Below, piece by piece: positions 15,976 to 22,151 of a stretch of DNA of 64,000 nucleotides. The stretch is taken from assembly GCA_012728115.1 (NCBI GenBank), contig JAAYFS010000036.1, forward strand, positions 1,280-65,279, given 5' to 3'. The DNA is from Bacillota bacterium (lineage in GTDB: Bacteria; Bacillota; Limnochordia; Darwinibacteriales; JAAYFS01). The number at the start of each line of letters is the position of its first letter. Within the stretch, counting starts at the first letter, position 1. A program made the position numbers and the translations under genes. The notes under the pieces are model-generated. The model saw nothing but the letters and a program-made list of their open reading frames with translations, searched no databases and was not told the origin of the DNA.

Positions 15976-16035
15976 TATCAGCTTCTTTCCTGTGAATCTT
16001 ATTACACATTATAGCATGATTACTAGGTTTAGGAA

Positions 16036-16069
16036 GTAAAAAAGCACCAACCGTTAACGGTTAGTGCTT
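16036..16069 (-). terminator. Intrinsic terminator downstream of the HEPN gene (also works on + strand).
   Basis: AAGCACCAACCGTTAACGGTTAGTGCTT 12-bp stem (1 mismatch). The A6 run on + strand corresponds to a T6 run following the stem on - strand. Confidence 0.6.
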
Positions 16070-16073
16070 TTTC

Positions 16074-16469
16074 TTAGTTAGTTTTAATTTTGGTTAAGGA
16101 TTCAATAAATTCTTTGATAATCTCTGCGTCTTCAATCGCTTCTGCTACATCTCTTTCTTCAAGATCAACATGAAAAGGATATCTTACATTTACCCCGTAG
16201 TCTGTCAAGTTAATACATTCGTCCATTATCTCGATGAAGGACGAATTGTAGCGTTGACAATCGCGGTTTAGCACCACTAGATCGTGGGTTTTTCTTATTC
16301 GTGCACCACTAAAGGCAATAAACCCTTTAAGATATTTTTCGGCGGATTGTTGGCAGTGATAAGCAATGATTTCTAGCGGTTTGGGTTTCATTCTCTGTAA
16401 GTAAACTGCCGATTGTAAATCTAAATCAGCTAAGGTAAACCACTCTTTTGCAACCGCTATATTATCCAT
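16074..16469 (-). CDS. hepT: HEPN-domain toxin (HepT-like) of a HEPN/MNT type VII toxin-antitoxin pair.
   Basis: 131-aa ORF with HEPN-like core (AEKYLKGFIAF ... R-x4-6-H region). Overlaps upstream nucleotidyltransferase gene by 8 nt. Confidence 0.65.
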   Translation of the reverse strand: MDNIAVAKEWFTLADLDLQSAVYLQRMKPKPLEIIAYHCQQSAEKYLKGFIAFSGARIRKTHDLVVLNRDCQRYNSSFIEIMDECINLTDYGVNVRYPFHVDLEERDVAEAIEDAEIIKEFIESLTKIKTN

Positions 16470-16788
16470 AGACTTTCACTCCCTCCCTCTTGATCTTGTA
16501 TTCAAGCGTAGTTTTGATGCTTGCTCGCTCTATAAATTCTTCCTTGGTATAAACCAATAGGTCGACTGGATACAGAGATATTGGGGCAATTGCTTTTCTG
16601 GCACGTTTAATAAGCTCTAGGGCTTGGTTGCCGTTAGTCGTGGTTAGTATGCAAAGATCAATATCGCTATCTTCATTCGGAGAACCATAGGCGTATGAAC
16701 CAAATAAAAAGATCTCTTCGACGGGAATTACTTCGACAATTTTCTCAACTAAAGATTTTACATATTGTTCTAATTCGGGAGTCACCAA
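16462..16788 (-). CDS. mntA: Minimal nucleotidyltransferase antitoxin (MntA-like).
   Basis: 108 aa. GSYAYGSPNEDSDIDLCIL is the Pol-beta-type NTase GS...D.D motif. Confidence 0.75.
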   Translation of the reverse strand: MVTPELEQYVKSLVEKIVEVIPVEEIFLFGSYAYGSPNEDSDIDLCILTTTNGNQALELIKRARKAIAPISLYPVDLLVYTKEEFIERASIKTTLEYKIKREGVKVYG

Positions 16789-16894
16789 AACCAGCTCCTC
16801 ATTTTCGTTAACTTTAGTGTCTACTTCTATTATACAGGATTAATGGTAACCCTCCAAATCTTTCTTAAATAGCGTAATAATTCTCTTGATTTTG

Positions 16895-16924
16895 TTGACA
16901 AAATTAACCGATTAGGTTTATAAT
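16895..16924 (+). promoter_or_regulatory. Near-consensus sigma-A promoter driving the aroF leader.
   Basis: TTGACA (16895-16900) - 18 nt - TATAAT (16919-16924). Confidence 0.6.
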
Positions 16925-16954
16925 ATCTGAAAACACATAAAGGTCTGAGGTCAA

Positions 16955-17104
16955 ATGATAGAGATTTGGAATGGAGTTTTAAGCAGGGTTTTCAATTTCG
17001 TTTTTGCTTTTTGGAGCTGGGGCTACTTTTATTGCGCTGGCTATTTTAACTTTATCAAAAACGAATTGAAAAGCACGCCTAATCTAAATCTCTATTCTGT
17101 ATGA
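16955..17104 (+). CDS. Candidate 49-codon aromatic-rich leader peptide (attenuation leader for aroF-pheA).
   Basis: ATG at 16955 after AGGTCTGAGG. Translation MIEIWNGVLSRVFNFVFAFWSWGYFYCAGYFNFIKNELKSTPNLNLYSV* has 14 of 49 residues as Trp/Phe/Tyr. Stop at 17102-17104, 30 nt before an intrinsic terminator. Confidence 0.45.
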   Translation: MIEIWNGVLSRVFNFVFAFWSWGYFYCAGYFNFIKNELKSTPNLNLYSV

Positions 17105-17133
17105 AAGTTTCAAGTGACATAGGTTAAGAGTAT

Positions 17134-17159
17134 AGAGGCTTAGAAAGCCTCTTTTTTTA
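17134..17159 (+). terminator. Intrinsic terminator (attenuator) immediately upstream of the aroF RBS.
   Basis: AGAGGCT-TAGAA-AGCCTCT followed by T7. Ends 5 nt before the AAAGGAGGA RBS of aroF. Confidence 0.6.
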
Positions 17160-17179
17160 TCATAAAGGAGGAATTGCGC

Positions 17180-18196
17180 ATGGTCATCGTTATGAAACCG
17201 AATGCCCCCCAAAGTGAGATCCATAGGATAATCGAAAAAGTAAAAAGTTTGGGTTGTAGAATTCATGTTTCGCAAGGAGAAAACTATTGCTTACTTGGAT
17301 TGGTGGGACATACTGAAAAGATCGATCTAAGCCAGCTTCAAGCTAATGAGCATGTTGATCGCGTCATTAGAGTGCAACACCCGTTCAAATTGGTAAATCG
17401 GTTGTTTCATCCAGAAGACACAGTGCTCGATATCGAAGGTGTGAAAGTCGGTGGTGGTAACAATGTGTATATCGCTGGACCATGTGCGGTAGAAAGTGAA
17501 GAACAACTGTTGACGATCGCCACTGCCGTTAAAGAAGCTGGAGCCCACATGCTCAGAGGTGGAGCCTATAAACCTCGTACTTCCCCTTATAGTTTCCAAG
17601 GCCTTGAAGAAGAAGGTTTAAAGATTATGGAACGAGTGAAATTCGAAACTGGTTTACCGATCGTAACAGAAGTTATGTCCCCTGACACTGTAGAGATTGT
17701 TGCGAGCTATGCCGATGTTTTACAAATCGGAGCCAGAAACATGCAAAACTTTCCTCTTTTAAAGGCAGTTGGAGAGACGGACAAGCCTGTGTTACTTAAA
17801 CGGGGTTTATCCGCCACTATCGAAGAATGGCTCATGGCTGCCGAGTATATTATGGCGGAGGGAAATAAAAAAGTGATCCTTTGCGAACGTGGGATCCGAA
17901 CTTTTGAAACCTATACCCGCAATACCTTGGATTTAAGTGCAGTACCAGCCGTGAAGGAACTTAGCCACCTTCCAATCATTGTTGACCCAAGTCATGCAGC
18001 AGGAAAGTGGAGAATGGTTGAACCTTTATCCAAAGCAGCGATCGCTGTCGGAGCCGATGGTCTAATTGTTGAAGTTCACCATCAACCTGAATTAGCTGTA
18101 TCCGATGGAGCTCAATCGTTAAAGCCCGAGAAGTTCGAAAAATTAATGAAAGCAGTTAGACAAATAGCAGCGATTAATGAGGTGACCAGATGTTAA
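17180..18196 (+). CDS. aroF: 3-deoxy-7-phosphoheptulonate (DAHP) synthase, type I-beta with N-terminal ferredoxin-like/ACT regulatory domain.
   Basis: ATG at 17180 (tool used TTG 17174). The first ~90 aa form an FL regulatory domain (as in Thermotoga DAHPS). The rest is the KDO8PS-like catalytic barrel (GPCAVESEEQ, KPRTSPYSFQG, IVDPSH). Confidence 0.85.
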   Translation: MVIVMKPNAPQSEIHRIIEKVKSLGCRIHVSQGENYCLLGLVGHTEKIDLSQLQANEHVDRVIRVQHPFKLVNRLFHPEDTVLDIEGVKVGGGNNVYIAGPCAVESEEQLLTIATAVKEAGAHMLRGGAYKPRTSPYSFQGLEEEGLKIMERVKFETGLPIVTEVMSPDTVEIVASYADVLQIGARNMQNFPLLKAVGETDKPVLLKRGLSATIEEWLMAAEYIMAEGNKKVILCERGIRTFETYTRNTLDLSAVPAVKELSHLPIIVDPSHAAGKWRMVEPLSKAAIAVGADGLIVEVHHQPELAVSDGAQSLKPEKFEKLMKAVRQIAAINEVTRC

Positions 18197-19017
18197 AAAA
18201 GATCGTATATCAAGGGGTTCCAGGTTCTTTTAGTGAAGAAGCCGCTATTAAATATTTCGGTGCTAAAACAGAGCGAATATCCGTTCAGTACTTTGAAGAA
18301 GTGTTCGTTGAGGTTACTGAGGGAAACGGTGAATTTGGTGTACTCCCTTTAGCAAATTCCCTGACAGGCGGAGTATATGAAGTACTAGATTTAATTAATG
18401 TGTACAACCTCTATATTGTCGGTGAAGTATATTTACCGATTAAACATCACCTACTTGGAATTCCTGGTGCGTCTATCGAGCAAATTACTGAAGTTTATTC
18501 GCATCCACAAGGTTTTCAGCAATGTTCGCGCTTTCTAACTTCTTTTTCGCAGTGGATGAAGATTCCCTACTTCAATACAGCGATCAGTGCTCAGTATATA
18601 AAAGAACAGGCCTCACCAAATAAGGCCTGTATCGCAAGCGAACGAGCAGCAGAAATATATGGTTTACAAGTGTTAAAACCTAGTATTCAAAACAATAATC
18701 ATAACTACACTCGCTTTATTATTATCGGAAAAGAAATTCTGGAATCAGACAACAATGATAAAGTAAGCATAGTGTATTCCCTACCTCATAAAGCGGGTAG
18801 TTTGTTTCAAAGTTTGTCAATCTTTTCGGTCCACGATTTAAACCTTTTGCGTTTAGAATCAAGACCGATCCCTGATCGACCTTGGGAATTTTATTTCTAT
18901 GTTGATTTTACAGGAAATCTACTGGCTGACCGCACCAGGTTTGCTCTGGAACTACTGAAGGAAAAGACTACATATTTTAAGCTACTAGGTTGCTATAAAT
19001 CTGCAGCTATTGATTGA
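18190..19017 (+). CDS. pheA: Prephenate dehydratase with C-terminal ACT domain.
   Basis: 275 aa. PDT domain (YQGVPGSFSEEAA, TRF), ACT domain at the C-terminus. Overlaps aroF by 7 nt. Confidence 0.85.
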   Translation: MLKKIVYQGVPGSFSEEAAIKYFGAKTERISVQYFEEVFVEVTEGNGEFGVLPLANSLTGGVYEVLDLINVYNLYIVGEVYLPIKHHLLGIPGASIEQITEVYSHPQGFQQCSRFLTSFSQWMKIPYFNTAISAQYIKEQASPNKACIASERAAEIYGLQVLKPSIQNNNHNYTRFIIIGKEILESDNNDKVSIVYSLPHKAGSLFQSLSIFSVHDLNLLRLESRPIPDRPWEFYFYVDFTGNLLADRTRFALELLKEKTTYFKLLGCYKSAAID

Positions 19018-19450
19018 GTGCATCAAGCACTCTTTTTACTATTTCCTTAGCTTCAGGTAGGGACATATCCCGATAGTTTCCGCATTGAATTTCATTAGCG
19101 GCGGGTACTTCAGCCGCCGCTAATATTTTATTAAGTGAGTTCTTTAAACCTTCAGCGATCTGATTTTCACAATATTCCCCGACTAGAATCAAGTAAAATC
19201 CTGTCCGACATCCCATCGGGGAAACATCGATCACGTTTGCAAATTCTTCCCGTAAAAACCCCGCAAGCAAATGCTCGATAGCATGGACAGCTCCTGTAGG
19301 CATTATTTCTTGATTTGGTTGAGTAAACCGTAAGTCAAACTTACTGATCACGTCTCCTCTAGGAGTAAGGATCCTGCCACAGTGCCTAACAAACGGAGCT
19401 TTAACTTTTGTATGGTCAAAGGTGAAACTTTCAACGATTACATTATCCAT
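19007..19450 (-). CDS. luxS: S-ribosylhomocysteine lyase (AI-2 synthase).
   Basis: HAIEHLLAGF (HxxEH metal motif) and FDHTKVKAPFVR. Start MDNV at ~19450 preceded by GGAGGAG. The ORF as called by the tool (19480) abuts the stop of the upstream fusion gene. Confidence 0.85.
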   Translation of the reverse strand: MDNVIVESFTFDHTKVKAPFVRHCGRILTPRGDVISKFDLRFTQPNQEIMPTGAVHAIEHLLAGFLREEFANVIDVSPMGCRTGFYLILVGEYCENQIAEGLKNSLNKILAAAEVPAANEIQCGNYRDMSLPEAKEIVKRVLDALNQ

Positions 19451-19480
19451 ATTGTACTCCTCCATAAGTAGTTGCCACAA

Positions 19481-22108
19481 TTAGGCTCCGCAAGCACTCT
19501 GTCTTTCACTGATCACTTGTTGCCAAACTAAGTCATCGATTGGTCTATTAAAGCTACGAAAACCCGCTAAAATAAATCCATGTTTTTGTGCTAATTCTCG
19601 CATTTCATTTAAGTAATCGAGATTCAGATCGGCACCGATACTTGTATTTTCATAACGCTGCTCAAGACCGAGCATCATTGTTTCAGACATGCAAGCATAT
19701 GCTAGACCCTTATCGAAACCAAAATCCCAACCTAAATCAGCTTTATTTGGAGTTTCAATAACACCACCATCGATCACTAATACATCTTTCCGATTATCTA
19801 GTACTTCATCAGCAACGTTTGCTGGTCGGGAAACATCACAAACCAAAGCACCCCACTTCAAGTTGGAAGAAGTGAGCATAGCCTTTGTATTACTTGTTGC
19901 CGCTAACACTAAATCTGCTTTAGGCAACCACTTATTGAGATCTACTGTGATCTTAATTGGAAAATCTTTCTTGTCACGCAAATCTTTCACTAACTCGATC
20001 CAAGCAGTGAGCGAATCATCTTGTGTCGGTAGGTCAATTAATTTCCCGACATAATGACCAATTGCGCCTGGTGAAAATGTTACGCCTTTTTTATTCAGAT
20101 CCGAAAGATATTTAAGTATTTCAGCGGCAACCTTCAACATCCGATACTCGCTTTTTTCTGGACGTTCAGGATTACCTATTAGAATTAACTCGCTAACACT
20201 TTCAGAGAGCAATACCGCAGAGGCTTTACCGATTGCTCCGCCAGCACCAACTACAGCAGCTGTTACTTTGTTGAGATCCATTCCGAGTTTTTGTGCACCT
20301 AAAATTAACGACTCTACACACGAAACCACAGTATAAGAGTTCCCTGTCGTAATTGGAACATCAACCTTGCCTGTCAAGGATCTTCCACCCATAGTAACGA
20401 CCGAAGTATAAGCTCCTAAACCAACGATTTTTGCACCTCTTGAACGTGCTAATTCAACTGCAGCAATAATCTCCGATTGAGCTTGTTCAGATGACATTTC
20501 TACCAATTGGTCAGCGGTCCGAGGTACGACAATAAATTCGCCGTAAGCACTCTGGCCCGTCTTACTTACTATTGTGGTACTGGAAACAACAAAAGGTTCA
20601 ACCATATCATTCCAGCGGCTTGATATATCTTCTAACTGTTCATCAGTCAATACTTGTAGACTCTTATCAAATTCCGTATAGTTTTTCAGATCGAGTGGAT
20701 GAACGAGGAACGCAAACCTGCCTTCATTCGGATCATCAGATGGTTTTGCAATTTCTTTTCTGACTAATGGCTTTGGATCTTCATCGTCTGGATCTTTATA
20801 ATTCACTAAGTGACCGATTAATGCCGCTGTATTTCTATGAGCAAGCATTCTAACCGCACGCTCGATTCTGGATAATGCAGTCTCTATCTGCTCATAACTA
20901 ATGATTAATGGAGGTTCAATTCTAATTACACTAGCACCGTTTAAAGTTGGTGCAACGCGTAGATTTTCTGTATTTAGTAAGTAGCTTGAGAACAAAGGTG
21001 TCAATATTTCTTGTTCAGCCATTACCCCTAGCAAACTATCTGGATAAAGCTCGCGATCCGAACCTAAATCGATACCGATCATTAAACCGCGACCTCGAAC
21101 TTCTTTGATAATATCTGGATACTTCGCTTGGATTTTAAGCAATCCATTCTTAAGTAGTTCGCCCTTCTTTTTAACTTCTTTGATCAACTCACAGTCATTG
21201 CGAGTTAACATTTCAATCACTTTAAGACCAACGCGACAACCAATAGAATTGCCCGCAAATGTGGAGGAATGTTTATTACCGAATTCTTCTGTATATACAT
21301 CTTCGGTACATAAAACTGCTCCGATCGGTACAATTCCACCACCAAGTGCCTTGGCGAGTACCATAACATCTGGTTCTACACCTTCATCGAAACAGGCAAA
21401 CATTGTTCCTGTTCTTCCAAGTCCTGTCTGGACTTCGTCGAAGATTAATAGTGCTCCAAATTCATCACATACTTCTCTTACCGCTTTGAGATATCCTTTT
21501 GGCGGAAGAACTATACCACCCTCACCTTGGATAGGCTCGACAATAAAGGCGGCATAGTTTTCACCATTTGTCTCAAATTCCATTCGCAAAGCATTGATAT
21601 CACCAAATGGGATGTGCTTAAACCCTGTAACTGGAGCACCAAAATCCTTTTGATATCCTGTATTACCTGTAGCAGAAAGAGCACCTAAAGTTTTCCCATG
21701 GAAACTATTGGAGGTGGCGAGAATTCCGAGCTTCTTCTTTCGGGATCGAACTAATTTAATTGCTGCTTCGACTGCTTCCGCACCACTATTAGTGTATGTA
21801 ACATATTGCATATTGGCAGGAGCAATCTCAATTAACCTTTTTGCTAGTGCCCCAGCAGCCTCTAAAAAGGATGGCTGAGTAAAACTAGGTTCGAGTGAGG
21901 CCTGGATTTCGTTGATCGCCTCCCAAATTGTTGGATGATTAAAGCCAAAAGGCAGCGCTCCGTAGGCAGCGATAAAATCCAAAATCTGGTTGCCTTGATC
22001 ATCGTATAAATAACAGCCCTCACCTTTTTTGTACCTTTTGTTCATTCCAATTTCTTGCAATAACCTACCTAAGTAAGGATTGATATGTTCGACATATGGA
22101 TGCATCAT
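19481..22108 (-). CDS. Bifunctional fusion: N-terminal class-III PLP aminotransferase + C-terminal fatty acyl-ACP reductase (AAR)-like NAD(P)-dependent domain.
   Basis: N-terminal half has DEVQTGLGRTGTMFACF and Schiff-base Lys VMVLAKALGGG (class III AT). C-terminal ~400 aa aligns along its whole length with cyanobacterial acyl-ACP reductase: LGAYTSVVT~LGGFTSIIF, TTGNSYTVVSCVESLILGAQKLGMDLNKVTAAVVGAGGAIGKASAVLL~[55 protein letters not shown]~DLILTAR, VLVIDGGVIE~IYVLNGGVVE, ACMSETMMLGLE~ACFAEAMLLEFE. Start ATGATG at 22108 preceded by GGGGG. Confidence 0.75.
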   Translation of the reverse strand: MMHPYVEHINPYLGRLLQEIGMNKRYKKGEGCYLYDDQGNQILDFIAAYGALPFGFNHPTIWEAINEIQASLEPSFTQPSFLEAAGALAKRLIEIAPANMQYVTYTNSGAEAVEAAIKLVRSRKKKLGILATSNSFHGKTLGALSATGNTGYQKDFGAPVTGFKHIPFGDINALRMEFETNGENYAAFIVEPIQGEGGIVLPPKGYLKAVREVCDEFGALLIFDEVQTGLGRTGTMFACFDEGVEPDVMVLAKALGGGIVPIGAVLCTEDVYTEEFGNKHSSTFAGNSIGCRVGLKVIEMLTRNDCELIKEVKKKGELLKNGLLKIQAKYPDIIKEVRGRGLMIGIDLGSDRELYPDSLLGVMAEQEILTPLFSSYLLNTENLRVAPTLNGASVIRIEPPLIISYEQIETALSRIERAVRMLAHRNTAALIGHLVNYKDPDDEDPKPLVRKEIAKPSDDPNEGRFAFLVHPLDLKNYTEFDKSLQVLTDEQLEDISSRWNDMVEPFVVSSTTIVSKTGQSAYGEFIVVPRTADQLVEMSSEQAQSEIIAAVELARSRGAKIVGLGAYTSVVTMGGRSLTGKVDVPITTGNSYTVVSCVESLILGAQKLGMDLNKVTAAVVGAGGAIGKASAVLLSESVSELILIGNPERPEKSEYRMLKVAAEILKYLSDLNKKGVTFSPGAIGHYVGKLIDLPTQDDSLTAWIELVKDLRDKKDFPIKITVDLNKWLPKADLVLAATSNTKAMLTSSNLKWGALVCDVSRPANVADEVLDNRKDVLVIDGGVIETPNKADLGWDFGFDKGLAYACMSETMMLGLEQRYENTSIGADLNLDYLNEMRELAQKHGFILAGFRSFNRPIDDLVWQQVISERQSACGA

Positions 22109-22128
22109 ATTTCCCCCTAACATCGTTG

Positions 22129-22144
22129 AGCACAAAGTTGTGCA
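22129..22144. promoter_or_regulatory. Palindromic candidate operator at the predicted transcription start of the fusion gene.
   Basis: GCACAA-AG-TTGTGC perfect 6-2-6 inverted repeat. A third TGCACAA half-site lies just upstream of the -35 (22181-22187). Confidence 0.35.
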
Positions 22145-22151
22145 CACAGTT

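Follow-up and report, generated by a model that had tools for sequence, protein, structure and literature searches.

The aroF-pheA operon on a 64,000-nucleotide (nt) stretch of a Bacillota bacterium genome (GenBank assembly GCA_012728115.1, contig JAAYFS010000036.1, positions 1,280 to 65,279 of the forward strand) is preceded by a small open reading frame (ORF) that is rich in codons for aromatic amino acids, and then by an intrinsic terminator. This whole stretch is called the window below, and positions are counted from its first letter. Here, we propose that the leader is probably a ribosome-mediated (leader-peptide) transcription attenuator, through which aroF-pheA would respond to charged tRNA-Phe, tRNA-Tyr and tRNA-Trp together. 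A first-pass annotation, made from the letters of the window alone, had likened the arrangement to the attenuators pheL and trpL of Escherichia coli, and that comparison is supported as the best reading on the basis of family conservation, the terminator, the genomic context and the pairings in the window. Judged from its sequence, the window ORF is a divergent member of a family of upstream ORFs and no chance frame. The family is a large one in Clostridia and Negativicutes, for which there is no matching Rfam, Pfam or NCBIfam model among the libraries searched.

The aroF leader and its ORF family

The AroF protein of the window is identical to NLY11167.1 from a metagenome-assembled genome (MAG) named 'Firmicutes bacterium', and the locus recurs, virtually identical, in other metagenome assemblies. 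Such copies from one species hardly differ from each other and are uninformative. The closest AroF relatives found have 73-76% identity and belong to Natronincola, Geosporobacter, Anaerovirgula, Alkaliphilus and relatives, while the AroF scans of public genome and metagenome collections gave best identities of only 68% and 64%. A homologous ORF is present 5' of aroF in all four loci fetched from the nearest AroF relatives, including Natronincola and Geosporobacter (for example, MIKMLEKIRKGCKLYIGFYFYWGFYFFSAGFFAWNNNRYETTFLRKSLYPMGA in Geosporobacter ferrireducens), and the same type of ORF also precedes the aroF homologues of a Clostridium-like MAG and of Phascolarctobacterium. With a profile of eight peptides, 72 small proteins could be retrieved from Clostridium species, Alkaliphilus metalliredigens (Amet_0645), Anaerovirgula and Sporomusaceae, and every one that carries a name from its source is labelled hypothetical. 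An exhaustive profile search then extended the family to at least 184 clusters (50% identity), with members from Clostridia and Negativicutes. Homologous leader ORFs, which the first-pass annotation had suggested looking for upstream of aroF in relatives, have thus been found both in the closest AroF relatives and in many Clostridia and Negativicutes.

The family core, YFYFSWGYFYFSAGYF, is present even in the weakest matches listed, and the peptides are 36-95 codons long (median 53). All three of Phe, Tyr and Trp occur in 178 of the 206 family peptides, with a mean aromatic fraction of 26% and medians of 6 Phe, 6 Tyr and 1 Trp; such a mixture would suit a sensor of the shared pathway from which all three are made. 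A hidden Markov model was built from the 206 family peptides with the window sequence left out, and among the 1,767 stop-to-stop frames of the window it matched 16949-17104 alone (E=4e-7, 26.7 bits). The window ORF itself is missing from the protein collection searched. No model matched the family peptides in the Pfam and NCBIfam scans, and the literature search found no description of a Clostridial/Negativicutes family of aromatic upstream ORFs.

In every locus examined, the family is tied to aromatic-pathway genes. When the look-up started from the peptide, each of the 6 ORFs was located immediately 5' of shikimate-pathway genes and in the same orientation. One of them, in Clostridium, precedes aroF-tyrA-aroB; two copies in one Sporomusaceae genome precede aroF-aroB (locus L173) and aroA-aroC-aroK (L174), respectively; and in three further lineages the ORF stands before aroF-tyrA-aroB, aroF-aroF and aroF-tyrA-aroE. 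The first-pass annotation had held against its own proposal the possibility of a conserved micro-protein occurring in unrelated contexts, and none of these six look-ups led away from the shikimate pathway. In addition, the family profile was run on the six frames of loci L001-L174, and the 26 matches are all on the coding strand, 5' of aromatic-pathway genes.

The conserved peptide family and its constant co-location with aromatic-pathway genes could also be expected of a functional micro-protein, that is, a hydrophobic, aromatic 49-residue peptide with its own job, such as a membrane- or enzyme-associated subunit in aromatic metabolism, in which case the terminator would set the ratio of the small gene to aroF. 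We regard this as highly improbable: the N- and C-terminal parts outside the core are not conserved as peptide and co-vary as the RNA helix P1 described below, Pfam and NCBIfam gave no match, the 12 lineages scanned all have a terminator after the ORF, and one genome has paralogous copies ahead of different shikimate operons, as would be the case for a cis-regulator.

Two further arrangements were seen around family members. Locus L175 carries at 492-641 a second family copy (MKEMSQVLHEIAYVFTYFSWSSFFAGAGYFAY...) before a gene for a 136-residue ACT-domain protein, 2 kb from the copy that precedes aroF. Tandem paralogous DAHP (3-deoxy-D-arabino-heptulosonate 7-phosphate) synthase genes are located behind one leader in L007 (1877-2890 and 3001-4014) and in L177 (2762-3769 and 3839-4846).

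The features of the window locus are listed in Table 1, and they agree closely with what the first-pass annotation had described. Its sigma-A promoter, TTGACA-N18-TATAAT, is present at 16895-16924 and scores 12/12 against the consensus, with no other perfect match within 16000-19600; transcription is predicted to start near 16931-16933. The duplex of the GAGG element with the anti-Shine-Dalgarno sequence has an energy of -6.3 kcal/mol, which is in the best 5% of random positions. A direct count confirmed the 14 aromatic codons among the 49 of the ORF (7 Phe, 4 Tyr and 3 Trp). The strong terminator, with the hairpin AGAGGCTT-AGA-AAGCCTCT at 17134-17152 and a T run to 17158, indeed begins 30 nt 3' of the leader stop codon, and its T run is 5-6 nt from the Shine-Dalgarno sequence of aroF. 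Domain assignment leaves the operon as named before, with DAHP synthase and prephenate dehydratase. Since the nearby upstream genes are all on the other strand, the leader terminator could act only on the transcript from the leader promoter.

Table 1. Observed and predicted features of the aroF-pheA leader and operon in the window.
Feature	Position	Strand	Remarks
-35 hexamer TTGACA	16895..16900	+	18-nt spacer to the -10 hexamer
-10 hexamer TATAAT	16919..16924	+	sequence match
Shine-Dalgarno-like GAGG of the leader ORF	16947..16950	+	4 nt 5' of ATG
Leader ORF	16955..17104	+	ATG start, 49 codons and TGA; peptide MIEIWNGVLSRVFNFVFAFWSWGYFYCAGYFNFIKNELKSTPNLNLYSV
Region 1 (5' strand of P1)	16955..16974	+	holds the start codon; 16958-16970 and 17083-17095 are 92% complementary
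P2, 5' strand	16990..17006	+	17 nt, 82% complementary to 17056-17072
Aromatic codon run	16991..17053	+	codons 13-33, FNFVFAFWSWGYFYCAGYFNF; apex of the long hairpin
Apical hairpin P3 (AGCUGG.GC / GC.CUGGCU)	17015..17042	+	codons S-W-G-Y...C-A-G; -11.2 kcal/mol, z=-2.7
P2, 3' strand	17056..17072	+	pairs with 16990-17006
Region 2 (3' strand of P1 and predicted 5' strand of the antiterminator)	17077..17101	+	abuts the stop codon 17102-17104
Region 3 (predicted 3' strand of the antiterminator)	17126..17144	+	includes the whole 5' arm and the loop of the terminator
Intrinsic terminator	17134..17158	+	G+C-rich stem of 8 base pairs, 17134-17141/17145-17152; loop AGA; T run
Shine-Dalgarno sequence of aroF, AAGGAGG	17165..17171	+	5-6 nt after the T run of the terminator
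aroF, DAHP synthase with N-terminal FXD domain	17180..18196	+	ATG at 17180
pheA, prephenate dehydratase	18190..19017	+	overlaps the end of aroF
Terminator-like hairpin	19016..19032	+	end of the aroF-pheA operon

Among the 362 ORFs of 30-80 codons in the six frames of the window, four have at least 14 aromatic residues, and the densest aromatic run is that of the leader ORF, with 12 in 21 residues (9 for the runner-up). The aromatic density of the leader ORF is extreme within the window and not unique, and alone it is not decisive; the comparative evidence is.

Probable translation, hairpin and terminator across lineages

The comparison of lineages suggests that the leader ORF is translated. 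In 10 independent lineages of 24-36% G+C, the family frame contains no stop codon over 153-213 nt, while the other two frames contain 44 and 63; in each of these lineages it is open for at least 44 codons from the inferred start, compared with about 5 stops in each of the other frames. A purine-rich element resembling a Shine-Dalgarno sequence (GAGG, GGAGG, AGGUGA or AAGGA) is located 2-9 nt before the start codon in 13 of 13 lineages. It should be noted that AGGUGA was under-scored in this test, in which the anti-Shine-Dalgarno string lacked the UCA that pairs with it. In the codon alignment, the changes at aromatic positions are mostly interchanges of TTT, TTC, TAT and TAC, that is, T/A at the second position and T/C at the third, and consequently the codons remain aromatic. 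The three-base periodicity of entropy over the whole ORF is not marked (0.97, 1.15 and 1.15 by codon position); the flanks of the ORF evolve as an RNA helix and not as a peptide.

The whole leader folds into a single long hairpin of -61.4 kcal/mol (z=-2.9 compared with shuffled sequences), in which P1, P2 and P3 follow one another from the base to the apex. This architecture is common to every lineage, and the sequences of P1 differ. For 13 lineages, the cognate pairs of region 1 with region 2, which make up P1, have a mean energy of -21.8 kcal/mol versus -13.1 kcal/mol for non-cognate pairs, and none of 50,000 permutations was as good. P1 therefore co-evolves strongly, as a lineage-specific pairing of the start of the ORF with its end. 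No other lineage among the 13 forms as strong a 1:2 duplex as the window (-29.7 to -31.1 kcal/mol). A hairpin at the P3 site was found in 9 of the 9 lineage sequences folded (z from -0.6 to -4.2); formal covariation in P3 was not above that of shuffles, because most of the columns are invariant.

Strong co-evolution of P1, the P3 hairpin in all nine folded sequences and a fold of the whole leader that is better than shuffled would all suit a non-coding structured RNA, in which a protein or ligand bound to P1-P2-P3 would control the terminator, the ORF being a by-product of a conserved U-rich sequence. Such an explanation is very unlikely in view of the coding evidence, since the frame is open for at least 44 codons in every lineage tested, at 24-36% G+C, a Shine-Dalgarno-like sequence and a start codon are present in every lineage, and the aromatic class of the codons survives changes at the second and third positions. 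Furthermore, the stop codon is located beside the predicted antiterminator strand in most lineages, and no Rfam family matches.

The motifs S-W-G and S-A-G of the peptide are conserved because their codons, AGC UGG GGC and AGC GCU GGC, form the arms of P3. In L009 and L097, W is replaced by Q (UGG to CAG), and in L167, G is replaced by S (GGC to AGC); by these changes, wobble pairs of P3 become Watson-Crick pairs. The clade of L007 has A-P-V and S-T-G instead of S-W-G and S-A-G, with an ACCGGU/ACCGGU hairpin in place.

These data bear on a further explanation, namely that a ribosome with the nascent core FSWGYFYFSAGYF would be arrested by free aromatic amino acids, or by a different small molecule, in the exit tunnel, in the way that TnaC acts with tryptophan. 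Such a leader would employ the terminator and the alternative pairings in the same manner, and it would sense the metabolite itself and not the charging of tRNA. The motifs S-W-G and S-A-G are nearly invariant in the 206 peptides, 167 of which contain a motif like S-A-G-Y-F, and a length of 36-95 residues (median 53) would be enough to fill the exit tunnel. An arrest-peptide sensor of this kind is nevertheless unlikely. The regulatory sign would be wrong, as a stall induced by abundance would raise aroF when the product is plentiful; the conserved non-aromatic codons coincide with the arms of P3; the peptide changes in L009, L097 and L167 keep or improve the pairing of P3, and the L007 clade has a different hairpin; and Phe and Tyr are freely interchangeable at the aromatic positions. 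We likewise consider it improbable that the nearly invariant non-aromatic residues of the core F-S-W-G-Y-F-Y-F-S-A-G-Y-F, beyond being a by-product of P3, turn the nascent chain into an arrest peptide whose stalling responds to aromatic amino acids, or to a metabolite of the shikimate pathway, in the exit tunnel. If so, the family would be a TnaC-type metabolite-sensing upstream ORF across Clostridia and Negativicutes, and no simple sensor of charged tRNA.

The terminator begins 24-59 nt past the stop codon of the ORF in 12 of the 12 lineages scanned, and under the same scan no terminator was found at locus L097. In two Clostridium loci (L006, about 651-717; L169, about 2690-2760) a further hairpin, almost a copy of the terminator (AGGAAGACUC...GGGUUUUUCU), is located between the leader stop codon and the true terminator, which suggests a relay of alternative pairings unlike the layout in the window.

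Conditional termination could also be dispensed with if the upstream ORF acted mainly post-transcriptionally, by translational coupling or occlusion or through the stability of the mRNA. The Shine-Dalgarno sequence and start codon of the leader are buried in P1 in the naked fold, and that of aroF comes only 5-6 nt past the T run, which would be compatible with such a role. It is scarcely probable, as a canonical G+C-rich hairpin with a T run separates the ORF from the gene in the 12 lineages scanned, and the ribosome-binding site of aroF is outside all the conserved pairings found.

The predicted switch

In the attenuation model, transcription would start near 16932 and a ribosome would load on the 49-codon leader ORF, while the leader RNA would form the long hairpin P1-P2-P3 with the aromatic codons at its apex. 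When aromatic aminoacyl-tRNAs are plentiful, the ribosome would reach the stop codon at 17102-17104 and cover region 2, and after its release P1 would re-form. With region 2 covered or held in P1, region 3 would be free for region 4, the terminator would form, and transcription would end near 17158, before aroF. When any one of the aromatic aminoacyl-tRNAs is scarce, ribosomes would stall and queue within codons 13-33 and P1-P3 would remain open; region 2 would then pair with region 3, so that the 5' arm of the terminator is sequestered and transcription reads through into aroF-pheA. The signal, on this model, would be ribosome stalling. More speculatively, P3 may act as a pause hairpin, giving the first ribosome time to draw level with the polymerase, and with its start codon buried in P1 the ORF may be translated only during a co-transcriptional window. 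Somewhat unusual features are the multivalent run of codons for Phe, Tyr and Trp, the apical placement of this run in a hairpin of about 150 nt and the occluded start codon.

Three mutually exclusive pairings were found in the window: 1:2 (about -30 kcal/mol), 2:3 (-13.1 kcal/mol; 17082-17101 with 17126-17144) and the hairpin of the terminator (-9.9 kcal/mol). Alternative pairings of the kind that the first-pass annotation had proposed to seek by folding do exist here, as region 2 can pair with either region 1 or region 3. Regions 1 and 3 are similar in sequence (AUAGAGAUUUGGA and AUAGAGGCUUAGA, respectively). A terminating ribosome would cover region 2, since the stop codon abuts it, and, as read from the coordinates, the best partner of the 5' arm of the terminator overlaps the footprint of a ribosome at the stop codon in 10 of 12 lineages.

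Several results weigh against this model. The family-wide test of cognate 2:3 pairs gave p=0.41 and then p=0.12 under the first two definitions, and it reached p=0.03 only after a redefinition and the addition of three lineages (13 in total); the cognate 2:3 signal across the family is weak and suggestive only. Against mononucleotide shuffles, the z-scores of the 2:3 duplex range from +1.0 to -3.1 and are mostly near -1 or weaker, because A/U-rich sequence pairs promiscuously. In equilibrium folding, the terminator is favoured at nearly every position of the ribosome; as the terminator wins at equilibrium in this way, the result is uninformative for a kinetic switch. The mean pairing of the 5' arm of the terminator, computed in the upstream direction on transcripts cut before its 3' arm, is 0.47 for naked RNA, 0.50 with a stalled ribosome and 0.41 with a ribosome at the stop codon, and thus varies only slightly with the modelled state.

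The position of region 1 raises a further difficulty. Region 1 (codons 1-7) is 5' of the aromatic run and would not be covered by a single ribosome stalled at the apex, and constraint folding with one stalled ribosome leaves P1 intact. Consequently, the model needs a ribosome queue or steric exclusion, either of which would keep region 1 unavailable. When one trailing ribosome was added to the stalled one in constraint folding, region 2 shifted from region 1 to 17127-17144 when the stall was at codon 17 or codon 24, and not when it was at codon 33. Two smaller points are the spacing of GAGG and ATG in the window, which is short at only 4 nt, and the conservation of S-W-G and S-A-G, which exceeds what a leader that purely counts codons would need. 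The weakest part of the model is the putative role of the 2:3 duplex as antiterminator.

If the model is true, one multivalent Phe, Tyr and Trp attenuator would govern the common aromatic pathway of many Clostridia and Negativicutes in place of T-box or TRAP control, and at least 184 clusters of 'hypothetical' small ORFs could be re-annotated as cis-regulatory leaders. Ribosome-mediated attenuation requires that the polymerase and the first ribosome are in synchrony. In Bacillus subtilis, transcription has been reported to outrun translation (PMC7858274). The family could serve as a concrete system for probing transcription-translation coupling, or pausing, in other Firmicutes. In addition, the leaders would be obvious targets for de-repressing the production of aromatic compounds in clostridia.

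Known leaders, T-boxes and neighbouring genes

The window leader shares with pheL-pheA and trpL-trp of E. coli a short ORF rich in codons for the product, followed by a terminator and then the biosynthetic gene, as well as a stop codon that adjoins region 2 and, as predicted, the logic of 1:2, 2:3 and 3:4 pairing. Unlike in these leaders, Phe, Tyr and Trp codons are mixed, the regulatory codons are at the apex of a hairpin of about 150 nt and not inside region 1, and the host belongs to the Firmicutes (Bacillota). The E. coli leaders have about 15 codons, and the window ORF is about threefold longer. In the thr and ilvGMEDA leaders of E. coli, one peptide contains codons for several end products, and shortage of any of them relieves termination; the multi-product logic would be shared with these multivalent attenuators, while the amino acids and sequences are different. 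The Rfam family of pheL, Phe_leader (RF01859), has no sequence or structure homology to the window leader: its match in 16700-17400 reaches 17.1 bits versus a gathering threshold of 55 (E=4.7) and comes mostly from the terminator.

In Firmicutes, T-box leaders of aromatic-pathway genes stand at the same place and give the output proposed for the window leader, conditional termination before aroF, but a T-box senses uncharged tRNA by RNA-RNA contacts and has no ORF. The first-pass annotation had found no T-box motif at the leader, which is borne out here by both the Rfam scans and a motif search. Scanned by E-value, 16700-17400 gave noise only, and the T-box (RF00230) was not matched there even at E up to 10; at gathering thresholds, no Rfam family matched anywhere in the whole window; and the T-box core motif GGTGG.ACC was not found in the leader. 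For TRAP, not even an array of three (G/U)AG triplets with 2-3 nt spacing is present in 16931-17180. In 20 related loci, the Rfam scan at gathering thresholds found no leader family, only T-boxes of other genes or lineages.

Two loci have a T-box upstream of their aroF homologues in place of the leader peptide (L017, 2672-2935, and L018, 2036-2310; 133 and 118 bits, respectively). The sensing device is thus swapped on the same gene, as orthologous aroF genes have either a T-box or a leader peptide. In L165 (1736-1998, minus strand) and L167 (1719-1980, minus strand), a T-box is located on the opposite strand beside the unit of leader and aroF; it governs a divergent PALP-domain gene, similar to tryptophan synthase beta, so that two attenuation systems are found in one intergenic region.

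The first-pass annotation had also called such attenuation unusual for Firmicutes, which is an overstatement, as the family is widespread there and leader-peptide attenuators both of Firmicutes and of aroF have already been published. In Firmicutes, it was for his genes that regular leader peptides were first noted. For aroF, the aroR leader peptide of Corynebacterium glutamicum attenuates the gene, as tested experimentally, and contains a Phe-Tyr-Phe motif (Neshat et al., 2014, as summarised in PMC11802643); in that summary it is reported to respond to Phe and not to Tyr. Like aroR, the window leader would be a ribosome-mediated attenuator with aromatic codons before a DAHP synthase operon; compared by description only, they differ in phylum and in the extent of the aromatic codons, a run of 21 codons here versus Phe-Tyr-Phe.

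The uORFC-13-1 motif is a predicted upstream ORF with an adjacent terminator, exclusively 5' of aroF, with 24 representatives from Acholeplasma and environmental sequences (Brewer et al., 2021, PMC8632094). Its U run encodes at least one Phe, and further base-paired substructure was noted (PMC8632094). The window leader is like it in the position before aroF, the upstream ORF, the terminator and the Firmicutes-related lineage; the taxon range (Acholeplasma) is not shared, and the two were compared by description only. In Anaeroplasmataceae, locus L025 contains a different upstream ORF about 85-200 nt 5' of aroF (MMLVASSKDYKAENYKYFLIIIIAF... / MMLVASSKDYKAENYKYFLIIIIAFMTYGDRNNSCPF), which runs into a terminator-like hairpin and is not matched by the family profile; it may be of the uORFC-13-1 type.

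Other aromatic upstream ORFs were also observed. The aroF gene of Veillonella is preceded, about 130-380 nt upstream, by another small ORF rich in aromatic codons (...QYFYWFFIQRTGKELFVVR), which the family profile does not match and which looks like an independent family of aromatic leader peptides (loci L019, L021, L024, L026, L038, L039, L068, L074, L105-L108, L111, L113 and L119). Two more types unrelated to the family are QFWFWFGYRPG...ARQTLR, upstream of aroF in actinomycetes, and GFYQFGWYR, in some MAGs of Bacillota/Clostridia; the loci with these ORFs are L079, L080, L083 and L150 (Actinobacteria) and L023, L069 and L070. Leader peptides of the aromatic kind seem to have evolved repeatedly upstream of DAHP synthase.

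A search of phage DNA gave no match. Between proBA and the aroF leader, a HEPN-domain gene (16074-16469, minus strand) overlaps a nucleotidyltransferase gene (16462-16788, minus strand), and the pair at 16074-16788 looks like a two-gene module of the toxin-antitoxin type. Beyond the operon, an 888-residue ORF (19481-22147, minus strand) has an N-terminal class-III aminotransferase domain and a long C-terminal extension of unknown type, and it is followed by luxS at 19007-19480.

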